In this document: positions 11,555-15,021 of the stretch, piece after piece
Layout of the letters: the number at the start of each line of letters is the position of its first letter
Position numbering within the stretch: position 1 is the stretch's first letter
Assembly (NCBI RefSeq): GCF_030013595.1
Contig: NZ_CP122768.1
Reading direction: 5' to 3' (one strand)
Origin: Escherichia coli
GTDB lineage: Bacteria; Pseudomonadota; Gammaproteobacteria; Enterobacterales; Enterobacteriaceae
Length of the DNA: 64,000 nucleotides
Position numbers and translations under genes: made by a program
Notes under the pieces: model-generated
Told to the model about the DNA's origin: nothing
Database searches by the model: none
The model's input: the letters and a program-made list of their open reading frames with translations, nothing else

Positions 11555-12559
11555 TTAAAGATGAGGAACCGGTAGCACAACGCCCGGTTGCAGGTAATGC
11601 TCAATACGCAGTAAAAGATCGGTGATGAGAAGCTCGCGGTTGATGCCTGTGACAGACATTAACTGTTCACGAATGTGGCAAACATCCCCCAGTATAGCCT
11701 GCAGGCGCGAGGGAGAAAGATGATTTGCCAGTTCGACGACCAGGCCCGGCACATCAACATTGGTCACCTGCGCAGCGCCATGATGGCGTTTTAGCGCATC
11801 CATCAGCAACGTTGCCAGCCAGTGTAAACGCGCCGGAGCTTGTTCATGATTAAGGGCCGCTAGCAGCGAATACCAGTCGCCCGATTGCACGCTATATGCC
11901 AGCGCCTGACACAATGTTTCACGAGCCTGCCAGTTATCTCCCTGAAACAACGCCAGTGCCGCCCCAGGCGAACCGGCGCTTAAGCGCAATGCGGCAAGTA
12001 GTGCATCCTGTGACATTGTCACTTCGCGTGAAAGCCAGGTCACGGCGTACTGTTCCGGCGGCGGCGCAAGGTAATGTAACCGACAACGACTACGTAATGT
12101 TGCCAGTAAACGTTCAGGCTCGCGGGTAGCCAGGAAAAACCAGGTTTCTGCTGGTGGCTCTTCAAGCGTTTTCAGCAATGCGTTAGCCGCGGCGTCAGTC
12201 AGTAAGGCAGCATCGGTTACCCAGACAACTTTCGCACCACCTAAGCGTGCGTGCTCATTTAACTTTTCGGTGACTTCACGTACCGCATCAATGCCCAGCG
12301 CATTTTTCCCTTTTTCGGGAGCCAGGGTGTAATAATCGGGATGCGTGCCAGCCTGCATCAACTGACATCCACGACAGTGACCGCAACTTTTGTGGCCCTG
12401 CGGTTGTTGGCAGAGTAAATAACGGCTCAGGGCGTAGATTAAAGCATCATCGCCCATGCCCGGTAACGCCTGAATGAGTAGCGCATGGTGACCTCTTCCG
12501 GCCTGATAGCTGGCTACCAGTTTTTCGAAATCAGGTCGTAACCATGGATACCATCTCAT
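11555..12559 (-). CDS. holB: DNA polymerase III delta' subunit
   Basis: ORF 11555..12559 (-), 334 aa; clamp-loader AAA+ fold with zinc-module cysteines (CGHCRGC). Confidence 0.95.
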
Positions 12560-13197
12560 GCGTCCAACTCCTTCACCCAGTTGGTCACGGTAGTGCGGAT
12601 TGCATCCATCACGGCCTCCAGCGGCTGGGTGGCATCAATGGTATGAATGCTTTTATCTTGTGCTGCCAGTTCCAGATAGCGGGCGCGGGTGCGATTAAAG
12701 AAATCGAAAGACTCTTGCTCAATACGATCCAGCTCGCCGCGCGCACGCGCGCGTTTTAAGCCAACCTCCGGGGTAACATCGAGATAGAGCGTTAAGTCGG
12801 GGCGAAAATCCCCGAGAACAGCATCACGCAGTGTTGCCAGCATATGTTGGTCAATACCACGTCCTCCACCCTGATAGGCTTGAGTGGAGAGATCGTGGCG
12901 ATCGCCAATCACCCAGGTGCCGTTAGCCAGCGCAGGTTTGATGACCGTTTCTACCAGTTGAACGCGCGCGGCATAAAACATCAGAACTTCGGCTTTATCG
13001 GTAATGACTTCATCGCCTACCGATTTGATATCCAGCACCAGGCTTCTTAACTTTTCGGCAAGTTGCGTACCGCCAGGTTCCCGAGTGAAAACCATGTCGC
13101 GGATACCCAGTTGCTCGAGCGTCTCAACCACCACGTTACGCGCGGTAGTTTTGCCTGCGCCTTCCAGCCCCTCAATGACGATATACTTACTGCGCAT
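12556..13197 (-). CDS. tmk: Thymidylate kinase
   Basis: ORF 12556..13197 (-), 213 aa; P-loop [11 protein letters not shown]; 4-nt overlap with holB start. Confidence 0.95.
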
Positions 13198-14209
13198 TTT
13201 TTTCCTTAAGCACTTTCAGATAATCCTGCACAGACTTGTTATGACTGGCAAGATTGGTATTAAACGTGTGACCACCTTTACCATCGGCCACAAAATAGAG
13301 ATACGGCGTTTTTGCCGGATGCGCAGCAGCCTTCAGCGAATCCGCCCCCGGCGTCGCTATCGCACCTGGCGGCAGACCGGTAATGGTATAGGTGTTATAC
13401 GCTGTCGGCGTTTCCAGGTCTGCACGAGAAAGTTTGCCATTATAACGCTCTCCCATCCCGTAAATCACGGTCGGGTCGGTCTGCAGGCGCATACCAATGC
13501 GTAAACGGTTGATAAATACTGAGGCAACCTGATCGCGTTCACTGGCAACGGCGGTTTCTTTTTCGATAATTGATGCCATCGTCACCAACTGGTTTTTATC
13601 TTTATAAGGCAGACCGTCCGCACGCCCTTCCCAGGCGCTATCGACCGCTTTCACCATTTTCTTGTGCGCTCGCTTGAGTAACGCGACATCGGTGGTATTG
13701 GCGGTATACATCCAGGTGTCTGGCCAGAACCAACCTTCAATCCACTCCGGGTTTTCCAGTTCAAGTGCCTGCGCTACGGTGGCGTACTTATCGTCGCTCA
13801 GCGTGTGCTTGATATACGGGGCCTCACGCAATTGCTTGAGGTAATCGCTCAGACGCATCCCTTCTACCAGTCGCAGAGGGAACTGTGCTTCTTTACCGCT
13901 TTCCAGCAATTTCAGCATCTCGCGCACGGTCATCTGCGGTGTAAAGCGGTAAGTCCCGGCTTTAAAGTGAGAAAGATCCGGTTCGATACGCAGCAGCCAT
14001 TGGAAAACCCGTGGGCGATTGATGATCTTATCGGCATAAAGCTGTTCACCGAGCGCCAGACGTCCGGTCCCTGGCTTCAGGGTAAATATCGTCTCTTCTT
14101 TGATAAGCAATTTGCTGTCGGCAAGATGGCGAACCTTCCAGACGCCCACACCAGCGGCGATACCCAGTACCACCAGCAATAACAAGATAATCAATAACAC
14201 TTTTTTCAT
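13187..14209 (-). CDS. mltG: Endolytic murein transglycosylase MltG (YceG)
   Basis: ORF 13187..14209 (-), 340 aa; N-terminal transmembrane helix; 3' end overlaps tmk start. Confidence 0.95.
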
Positions 14210-14211
14210 GA

Positions 14212-15021
14212 CTAATTCGGGCGCTCACAAAGTGGGGCTAAATATTCATATAACGTTGCTGACGAAAAGGAGACATCGCCACAGGCACGTACGGGCATCA
14301 CTGGCATTAACGCATTACAAATAACCATCTCATTTGCCTGCAACGCCTCTTCCAGAGTGGCTTGCACTTCGACAAGCTGATAAGAGGATTGTGCCAGTAA
14401 ACGGATACAGAATTGTCGCATAATGCCGTTAACACCTGCCTGATCCAGTCGCGGCGTATAAACTACGTTGCCCTTCCGCCAGAACAAATTAGCCGCACAG
14501 CATTCCGTAACCCACCCTTCGCTGTCAAGGACCAGCGCCTCATCAGCGTTTGTCTGCTCAAGATGAGAGCGGATCAATACTTGCTCAAGCCGATTAAGAT
14601 GTTTAATACCTGCAAGATGAGGATTGCGCCCCAGCCGTACCGGGCTTAGCGCCAACGTCATCCCTTCGTTACGCAAACGGTCGTAATGTGCAGGATAAGC
14701 CGTAACGGAGAGAATCCGCGTTGCCGGTCCACTGTTCAATGTGCTGTACCCTCGCCCGCCACTACCGCGACTGATCACGACTTTCAGTACACCATTTTGC
14801 TGTTCTGCTGCCAGCGTTTTCATCTCTTGTTCAAGCTGAGGCCAGAAGTCACAGGAAATCATCAACCGCTGACAAGCATCCTGTAGTCGCTGGATATGCG
14901 CCGATAACAAACTGACTTTACCGTCGATAACTCTGGCGGTGGTAAAACAACCATCACCAAACTGCGTTGCCCGATCGCTTACTGCCAGCGATTCCTGCTT
15001 ATGACCGTTAATTAAGAACAT
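14212..15021 (-). CDS. pabC: 4-amino-4-deoxychorismate lyase
   Basis: ORF 14212..15021 (-), 269 aa; aminotransferase class IV fold; syntenic downstream of fabF. Confidence 0.95.

Follow-up and report, generated by a model that had tools for sequence, protein, structure and literature searches.

Compact junctions in the Escherichia coli pabC-mltG-tmk-holB-ycfH gene string, each probably working differently

Described systems and the locus in the window

The closest described counterpart of the locus considered here is the pabC-mltG (yceG)-tmk-holB-ycfH cluster of E. coli K-12, located downstream of the fab cluster, in which the tmk/holB overlap and its consequences have been described by Napolitano et al. 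(2016). A second reference is provided by the coupled NTGA and TGATG pairs (Huber et al., 2019; Brown and Wade, 2025), which are defined by the dependence of the downstream gene on translation of the upstream one; reporter work in E. coli found coupling to peak at spacings from -4 to +3 nt and to weaken as the overlap lengthens. The dcw (mra) cluster of E. coli is likewise a long string of essential genes (ftsL, murE, murF, mraY, murD, ftsW, murG, ddlB and ftsA) in which successive genes overlap or are separated by almost no spacer (-3 to -13 in the convention of the original paper), although it belongs to another pathway, contains many more genes and has well-mapped internal promoters; there, adjacent genes differ 2-5-fold in translation efficiency despite the tight packing. 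Earlier work has documented the present gene string and its overlaps, as well as coupling at such overlaps in general.

The window, that is, the whole stretch of 64,000 nucleotides analysed, is E. coli chromosome, and on its minus strand, between fabF and ptsG, it carries the same five genes as the K-12 cluster, with the same order, strand relationship and junctions and no difference of substance. Transcription runs from pabC, the first gene of the unit (aminodeoxychorismate lyase, 14212..15021; NCBIfam NF004761, 429 bits), through mltG, also named yceG (endolytic murein transglycosylase, 13187..14209; NF007619, 768 bits; TIGR00247), tmk (the essential dTMP kinase, 12556..13197; TIGR00041, 234 bits; PDB 4TMK, aligned over Tmk residues 1-213) and holB (the essential delta-prime subunit of DNA polymerase III, 11555..12559; NF005941, 639 bits; PDB 1A5T, aligned over delta-prime residues 1-334), to ycfH, the last gene, which encodes a TatD-family metal-dependent hydrolase and, together with its 10-nt spacer from holB, occupies 10747..11554 (NF008075, 572 bits). 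The equivalog matches exceed the curated cut-off for all five genes, and the successive spacings are +2, -11, -4 and +10 nt. The original prediction had named the string in the reverse of this order, from holB to pabC, and had placed the tmk start over the holB stop; because the genes lie on the minus strand, the overlap (ATGA) is between the stop of tmk and the start of holB. The spacings that it gave (4 nt for holB-tmk, 11 nt for tmk-mltG and 2 nt for pabC-mltG) are all present where it located them.

RefSeq places the gene boundaries identically in an E. coli record with 100% identity to window positions 10500-16500; this closest record has 99.96% identity to the window over the compared part, the differences being point substitutions and insertion-sequence content elsewhere in the window, and the region is matched by 5,424 of 5,426 complete E. 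coli genomes. The start codons of the string are secure: each is the earliest possible start in its open reading frame and has a homologous ATG in about 76 further species, and the alignments to the solved structures of Tmk and delta-prime begin at residue 1. The species comparison covered about 76 Enterobacteriaceae species; one locus, in which three genes, including the essential holB, are broken into different reading frames, most likely by sequencing error, was left out of the counts. A search of the operon for a hidden RNA element returned no Rfam match and no tRNA.

As is typical of bacterial operons, the junctions are compact, and their spacing is statistically ordinary. Of the 50 same-strand neighbour pairs in the window, six overlap, and the spacing does not exceed +3 nt in 11 and +15 nt in 21; in most prokaryotic groups about 15% of co-directional pairs overlap, with -4, -1 and -8 as the enriched classes. 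Two further junctions on the minus strand that the original prediction had cited as similarly arranged are confirmed in sequence and annotation: flgI/flgJ (30947..30951), a TGATG junction with a 1-nt overlap (-1), and opgG/opgH, or mdoG/mdoH (58853..58860; ATGAATAA), with an 8-nt overlap (-8). The optimal range for coupling, about -4 to +3 nt, includes tmk/holB (-4), pabC/mltG (+2) and flgI/flgJ (-1), whereas mltG/tmk (-11), opgG/opgH (-8) and holB/ycfH (+10) lie beyond it, at spacings that have still shown some coupling. Compared by spacing with the coupled NTGA/TGATG pairs, tmk/holB is a textbook ATGA pair with the Shine-Dalgarno (SD) motif in the upstream gene, flgI/flgJ is a TGATG pair and opgG/opgH falls in the enriched -8 class, whereas mltG/tmk is outside the enriched classes and in the range of reduced efficiency. 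Such overlaps permit linked translation of neighbouring genes and do not prove coupling.

Initiation signals at the four junctions

At the pabC/mltG junction (14207..14214, minus strand; TAGTCATG), the pabC stop codon TAG (14214-14212) is followed by tc and by the mltG ATG (14209-14207), which leaves a 2-nt gap (+2) and no SD motif before the mltG start. The SD of pabC itself is AAGGAG at 15032-15027, with a duplex energy of -8.5 kcal/mol in E. coli, equal to the median over 75 species; for mltG, the E. coli value and the median over 76 species are both -1.9 kcal/mol, which is background level. The spacing varies among species, being -4 in 25 and +1 to +8 in 51, and the mltG start lies no more than 8 nt from the pabC stop in every species, with no SD in any of about 76 Enterobacteriaceae. 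A weak or absent SD, taken as a sign of low independent initiation, is thus found at mltG, and translational coupling from pabC to mltG is plausible from the sequence because mltG is devoid of such a motif. Most likely, the bulk of mltG translation would come from ribosomes fresh from termination on pabC (termination-reinitiation), and the A-rich, fairly open start region of mltG (predicted accessibility at about the 76th-84th percentile) may assist initiation; as a counterpoint, the same open, A-rich site could allow the SD-less start to initiate by itself.

The situation differs at the mltG/tmk junction (13187..13207, minus strand), where tmk starts with its ATG at 13197-13195 before mltG has ended at its TAA stop codon (13189-13187); the shared 11-nt stretch at 13197-13187 reads ATGCGCAGTAA. 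The SD motif of tmk, AAGGA (13207-13203), and an A-run sit within the mltG coding sequence and are both conserved, and 74 of 76 species share the -11 spacing. For the mltG lysine codon inside this SD, 73 of 74 species use AAG, compared with an overall AAG share of 32%; the SD motifs located inside upstream genes are preserved by synonymous-codon bias. With a duplex energy of -6.1 kcal/mol and a start region more open than any other 30-nt stretch of the operon mRNA, in the top percentile of predicted accessibility, tmk does not show the weak SD or buried start expected of a gene with low independent initiation. Coupling from mltG to tmk is dispensable because tmk possesses a conserved SD and an open start region of its own and is reportedly served by transcripts starting in the upstream coding sequence; the sequence features come from this analysis and the experimental support from the literature. 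Most of the initiation on tmk would occur on its own, from the embedded SD and the very open start, and the gene would also be reached by the reported transcripts that begin inside the upstream coding sequence.

Part of the experimental support is derived from the recoded genome Ec_Syn57, in which mltG and tmk were separated by splitting their overlap and placing a synthetic promoter between them, giving a strain that grows with improved fitness; the oligonucleotide arms used in that work were mapped here onto the junction sequence. The Ec_Syn57 segment containing this region had required promoter repair in front of tmk, and a loss of coupling, in addition to promoter damage, could account for part of the fitness defect seen with the refactored segment.

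In the tmk/holB junction (12556..12573, minus strand), the tmk stop TGA and the holB ATG share the sequence ATGA at 12559-12556, a 4-nt overlap, and the tmk coding sequence contains the holB SD, AAGGAG (12573-12568). Of 77 species, 75 show the -4 spacing; the glutamate codon within this SD takes the form GAG in 71 of 75 (baseline, 44%), and the codon before it ends in G in 74 of 75 species despite a varying amino acid. Its duplex energy of -8.3 kcal/mol does not correspond to the weak SD expected for low independent initiation. A conserved structure hiding the holB start was considered and rejected, the predicted accessibility being at the 28th percentile in E. coli against the 68th percentile as the cross-species median. 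Coupling from tmk to holB is plausible on these features, and holB would probably be translated by a mixture of reinitiating and newly recruited ribosomes, since a conserved SD in the last tmk codons is combined with the overlap geometry most favourable for coupling. Recoding of the AGA4 codon of holB failed because it destroys the tmk stop codon, and replacement of the overlap by a separate stop codon gave a viable strain (Napolitano et al., 2016).

The last junction, holB/ycfH, has a spacer of 10 nt (11554-11545), a spacing kept at +10 in 62 of 72 species. The SD-like GAGAG (-5.4 kcal/mol) gives ycfH a moderate SD motif, and weak coupling to holB may be possible. The pattern of duplex energies over the five genes recurs in about 76 species.

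Transcription of the unit and its fate in distant genomes

The upstream limit of the pabC transcription unit is marked by an intrinsic terminator-like hairpin with a U-run after fabF (15089..15119, minus strand; AAAAGGUCCGCUUGCGGGCCUUUUUUCUU; -15.9 kcal/mol in ViennaRNA), recovered by folding window positions 15140 to 15060. This hairpin was overlooked by the consensus terminator scan and found by the direct fold. The scan returned 8 sites against 7.6 expected by chance; its sole minus-strand match inside the operon is a weak 5-pair stem in holB (12155-12139), and it gave no convincing terminator-like minus-strand site between pabC and ycfH. Messenger levels are about 20-fold higher for fabF (2337) than for tmk (120) and ycfH (103), and of the five genes the two listed in the table of Burkhardt (2017), tmk and ycfH, resemble each other in mRNA level as well as in ribosome density (110 and 134, respectively).

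The consensus scan detected no minus-strand promoter in the operon, and the best internal promoter score in the position-weight-matrix scan was 9.9, against a best score of 11.4 +/- 1.3 in shuffled sequence; candidates such as GTGATT-18-TATAAT (13468-13439) fall below that value and are unsupported. Independent promoters between the genes, which the original prediction had named as evidence against a coupled string, are nevertheless indicated in part, since intragenic promoters for a 'tmk-holB operon' have been reported from SMRT-Cappable-seq, as described in the Ec_Syn57 work.

Beyond the family, a homologous-protein search with Tmk returned Enterobacteriaceae only (86-99% identity), and distant relatives were sampled by a representative search and contig look-ups. 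Relatives with about 50% identity in Tmk still share the gene order of E. coli. In the divergent genomes, tmk and holB overlap in all seven loci examined, and mltG is absent from four of the seven; these four keep tmk, which follows pabC or acpP at a distance of 55-122 nt in three loci and fabF at 1 nt in the remaining one. Both mltG and pabC have been lost independently in other genomes, and tmk-holB persists. The length of the overlaps differs between lineages, with tmk>holB spacings of -1, -4, -10, -14 and -23 and mltG>tmk spacings of -23, -11, -4 and +8; within Enterobacteriaceae, the invariance of the overlaps is largely explained by the double coding constraint on essential genes.

Explanations weighed and their meaning

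Taken together, these features point to the known, low-expressed housekeeping string that follows the fabF terminator, with each junction probably working in a different way, as the best explanation. Less favoured, and on balance unlikely, is a reading of all the overlaps as a by-product of compaction, frozen by the double coding constraint, with every gene initiated independently and no junction coupled. [quoted passage not shown] It is favoured by the SD motifs that tmk, holB, pabC and ycfH each possess, by the free shift of overlap length between lineages and by the viability of strains in which the mltG/tmk and tmk/holB overlaps have both been engineered away. The ATGA pair bioBF, which has a weak SD, is uncoupled, and overlapping dcw neighbours differ 2-3 fold in translation efficiency, for instance with murG above the upstream ftsW. 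Against general independence stand mltG, which has no SD in 76 species and a start always within 8 nt of the pabC stop, the four of five native E. coli ATGA pairs found to be coupled when tested, and the persistence of the tmk/holB overlap in highly reduced, rearranged genomes.

Much less probable still is the opposite extreme, in which the whole string would be one obligatorily coupled unit that fixes the ratios of folate, cell-wall, nucleotide-kinase and replication-subunit products and links these processes. All four junctions are in the range where some coupling has been seen, the gene order is retained in distant relatives and the ribosome densities of tmk and ycfH are similar; against this, tmk-holB is supplied by the reported internal promoter, tmk is functional when uncoupled from mltG in Ec_Syn57, mltG and pabC are lost elsewhere without tmk-holB, and overlap does not equalise translation elsewhere in E. 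coli. The products of pabC, mltG, tmk and holB are, moreover, not subunits of one complex. Translational coupling as originally predicted is thus compatible with the geometry and with the conservation of the tight junctions, but a single coupled string fails at mltG>tmk, because the 11-nt overlap falls in the range of declining efficiency and because reduced genomes without mltG keep tmk. For the functional link that was proposed between replication, nucleotide and cell-wall genes, the support is limited to gene adjacency.

A programmed +1 ribosomal slippage at the A-run of mltG/tmk (GAA AAA AAT G), giving an MltG-Tmk fusion, was rejected as having a negligible chance of being right: a +1 slip on AAA_A would land on the tmk ATG and read all 213 codons, and the A-run and the upstream SD-like AAGGA are conserved, but the tmk ribosome-binding site already accounts for this conservation, the A site holds no slow or stop codon to drive the shift, distant relatives have other spacings and no A-run, no natural protein of fusion length was seen among the homologues (the longer matches being assembly chimeras), and the C-terminal domain of MltG is periplasmic, which would leave the fused kinase in the wrong compartment.

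In summary, with each junction probably working differently, the locus has little discovery value, and its practical relevance lies in genome engineering. Recoding projects have already run into trouble at exactly these junctions, with the failure at holB AGA4 and the promoter repair before tmk in Ec_Syn57, and the predictions for refactoring this essential locus are that mltG is probably dependent on pabC, that tmk is independent and that holB is mixed. The stricter possibility that mltG is translated essentially only by ribosomes fresh from pabC is put forward tentatively and remains rather doubtful; if true, the pabC ribosome-binding site and the translation of pabC would set the cellular level of MltG, the glycan-strand terminase, and a hard-wired link would exist between an enzyme of the folate branch and cell-wall synthesis.

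Gene order and junction geometry

On the minus strand, in a window that is E. coli chromosome, fabF (15141-16382) is followed by a canonical terminator hairpin with a U-run (~15119-15089) and then by pabC (14212-15021), mltG, also named yceG (13187-14209), tmk (12556-13197), holB (11555-12559) and ycfH (10747-11544), with ptsG beyond a 294-nt gap. All five products from pabC to ycfH match NCBIfam equivalog models far over the curated cut-off, no Rfam families or tRNAs were found in the operon, and a 6-kb query around it matches 5,424 out of the 5,426 complete genomes of E. coli, with NZ_CM149870.1 being 100% identical; the locus is a known E. 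coli cluster, and nothing in it is novel. The starts can be taken as certain: each is the earliest possible in its ORF, each is ATG at the homologous position in ~76 other species, and alignments to the Tmk and delta-prime (holB product) chains of crystal and cryo-EM structures begin at residue 1.

Base-by-base reading (negative values, overlaps; positive values, gaps) gives +2 nt for pabC-mltG (TAG-tc-ATG), -11 nt for mltG-tmk (ATGCGCAGTAA), -4 nt for tmk-holB (ATGA) and +10 nt for holB-ycfH (a 10-nt spacer), and, also on the minus strand, -1 nt for flgI-flgJ (TGATG, 30951-30947) and -8 nt for opgG-opgH (ATGAATAA, 58860-58853). The spacings of the original prediction are all correct; its phrase that the tmk start overlaps the holB stop is inverted, because the genes sit on the minus strand: the tmk stop overlaps the holB start, and transcription runs opposite to the announced order holB-tmk-mltG(-pabC). 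Such spacing is not unusual: among the 50 same-strand neighbour pairs in the window there are 6 overlaps, 11 spacings of no more than +3 nt and 21 of no more than +15 nt. Published figures put overlaps at ~15% of co-directional pairs across most prokaryotic groups, with -4 by far the most frequent spacing and -1 and -8 next, and the E. coli dcw (cell-division/cell-wall) cluster has a still longer series of junctions of this kind. Two further same-strand overlaps, absent from the original list, are those of lpoB/thiK (20 nt, 5042-5061, thiK starting with GTG) and ymdB/clsC (59 nt, 63370-63428); the latter length is unusual, so the annotated start of clsC, above all, may be wrong.

Elsewhere, the interval from yceK to opgH holds an IS4-family transposase ORF (54811-56148, plus strand, flanks to ~56290; NCBIfam NF033592, 445 aa), at a site where the closest record, NZ_CM149870.1, lacks it, and a match to the Rfam sRNA ES036 (CssrF) lies just past it (56243-56285). 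Conversely, the ~1.4-kb IS1397 (IS3-like) found between yceF and rluC in the closest record is missing from the window at ~22328-22331, where both flanks are 99.96% identical, so the strain differs from that record. The known RNAs SraB (21564-21732, minus), the rne 5' UTR element (23593-23929, plus) and the pyrC leader (45624-45673, plus) are present, as would be expected of the region.

Conservation of junctions and start regions

Among 80 Enterobacteriaceae species, from which a locus with broken reading frames was left out, the mltG-tmk spacing is -11 in 74/76, tmk-holB is -4 in 75/77 and holB-ycfH is +10 in 62/72, and at pabC-mltG 25 species have -4 and 51 have spacings from +1 to +8. Across this set, protein identity goes as low as 59% for HolB and 55% for PabC. 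The junctions are evolutionarily maintained. Such constancy is in large part to be expected for a trivial reason, as an indel in the overlap or loss of a stop codon harms both genes at once; tmk and holB are each essential. Conversion of the tmk stop to a sense codon, a by-product of holB AGA4 recoding, appeared deleterious (Napolitano et al.). The omitted locus (CP022114.1, Kluyvera genomosp. 3) has pabC, mltG and essential holB each broken over 2-3 frames, which suggests uncorrected indel errors in a 'complete' genome. An enterobacterial pabC-mltG-tmk-holB-ycfH locus on a contig labelled 'Chryseobacterium sp. 18061' (CACSKA010000011.1), with Tmk 86-87% identical to that of E. coli, most likely reflects assembly contamination or mislabelling, and two oversized 'Tmk' proteins from a public collection (P0001 and P0003), one with internal duplicated segments and the other a PanB-Tmk chimera, are artefacts.

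Shine-Dalgarno (SD) strength, taken as duplex energy with the 16S rRNA 3' end, is -8.5 kcal/mol for pabC, -6.1 for tmk, -8.3 for holB and -5.4 for ycfH, and -1.9 for mltG, which is not separable from background; the same pattern recurs in the medians of ~76 species. The tmk and holB motifs lie inside the mltG and tmk coding sequences, respectively, and are preserved through codon choice: the overlying mltG Lys codon is AAG in 73/74 species (32% AAG overall), the overlying tmk Glu codon is GAG in 71/75 (44% overall), and the tmk codon just before it has G as its last base in 74/75, with a variable amino acid (K, Q, R, E, A or G). The P-values for these biases are nominal, as the species are kin. 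Predicted accessibility (-20 to +10 of each start) puts the tmk start first among the 30-nt windows of the E. coli mRNA (95th percentile as the cross-species median), with moderate values for pabC and mltG and unremarkable or variable ones for holB.

Among eight loci of more distant Tmk relatives (41-58% identity), tmk overlaps holB in all seven having holB next downstream (-1, -4, -4, -10, -14, -23 and -31 nt, the last resting on a doubtful start), mltG-tmk spacings are -4, -4 or +8 nt, and mltG is absent from four. Three of these four (L087, L089 and L090, on contigs of 454-599 kb with 21-26% GC) have tmk 55-122 nt behind pabC or acpP, and the fourth has it 1 nt behind fabF. Tight tmk-holB packing is therefore ancient, unlike the particular length of the overlap, and tmk can do without an upstream mltG. 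A published survey likewise reports that tmk typically adjoins holB in gamma-proteobacteria and overlaps it in Pseudomonas putida. The three contigs, from reduced and presumably endosymbiont genomes, retain an E. coli-like gene order, acpP-(pabC)-tmk-holB-tatD-(ptsG)-hinT, and have lost fabF and mltG, so MltG is dispensable in those lineages.

Transcription and uncoupling of tmk

A consensus promoter scan of the minus strand within the operon gave no promoter-like site, and the only terminator-like site, located in holB, consists of a weak stem of 5 pairs, from a scan yielding 8 sites in the region against 7.6 expected by chance. Published mRNA levels (tmk 120, ycfH 103, fabF 2337) and ribosome densities (tmk 110, ycfH 134; Burkhardt et al. 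2017) fit a separate low-level transcript common to tmk and ycfH. According to Cappable-seq data discussed for the recoded genome Ec_Syn57, the 'tmk-holB operon' has intragenic promoters, harmed by recoding; the reported promoter could not be placed here (best position-weight-matrix score 9.9, against 11.4 +/- 1.3 for the best in shuffled sequence).

The Ec_Syn57 design 'disentangled overlapping genes', retaining 15-20 bp of upstream sequence. One arm of a repair oligonucleotide in its supplement maps to 13173-13217 (the tmk start together with the 20 nt before it) and the other to 13187-13231 (the recoded mltG 3' end), so the mltG/tmk overlap was duplicated and split, and a synthetic constitutive promoter was placed downstream of the mltG stop, ahead of the ribosome-binding site of tmk. 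Doubling time fell from 253 to 83 minutes after this insertion plus two others; essential tmk therefore works when translationally uncoupled from mltG. The internal promoter, this independence of tmk and the fact that other genomes have lost pabC and mltG independently contradict the strong version of the original prediction, a single coupled replication, nucleotide and cell-wall unit.

Coupling at individual junctions

The junctions fall in well-described classes of spatially coupled ORFs; a 'translationally coupled pair', defined by dependence on upstream translation, is not assignable by geometry alone. In E. coli reporters, coupling efficiency peaks at -4 to +3 nt, drops with longer overlaps until gone at -25 nt, and drops gradually with spacers to 30-40 nt. 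The main rival explanation is that functional coupling is absent from every junction, compaction having produced the overlaps as by-products that are now frozen. Among five ATGA pairs native to E. coli, assayed with normalisation to mRNA, three are strictly coupled, one is coupled at ~60% and bioBF is uncoupled; dcw neighbours spaced at -3 to 0 differ 2-3 fold in translation efficiency, murG exceeding upstream ftsW, so overlap does not equalise output. Replacing the tmk/holB ATGA with a separate stop codon ahead of the holB ATG gave a viable strain (Napolitano et al.), and, since this edit leaves the genes directly adjacent, it neither shows nor excludes coupling.

Most likely, the locus is a compact housekeeping operon of an ordinary kind, and its junctions act differently from each other. 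Coupling is dispensable at mltG-tmk and would be at most weak at holB-ycfH, and tmk-holB probably mixes reinitiation with independent initiation at the conserved SD. Shown directly are the features of the sequence and how they are conserved, together with the uncoupling of tmk, engineered or natural; reinitiation itself we infer. The best candidate for termination-reinitiation is pabC-mltG, because mltG is SD-less in all species and its start is at most 8 nt away from the stop of pabC. This SD-less mltG start behind pabC, consistent across species, is the sole mildly interesting point of the locus, and coupling there is putative.
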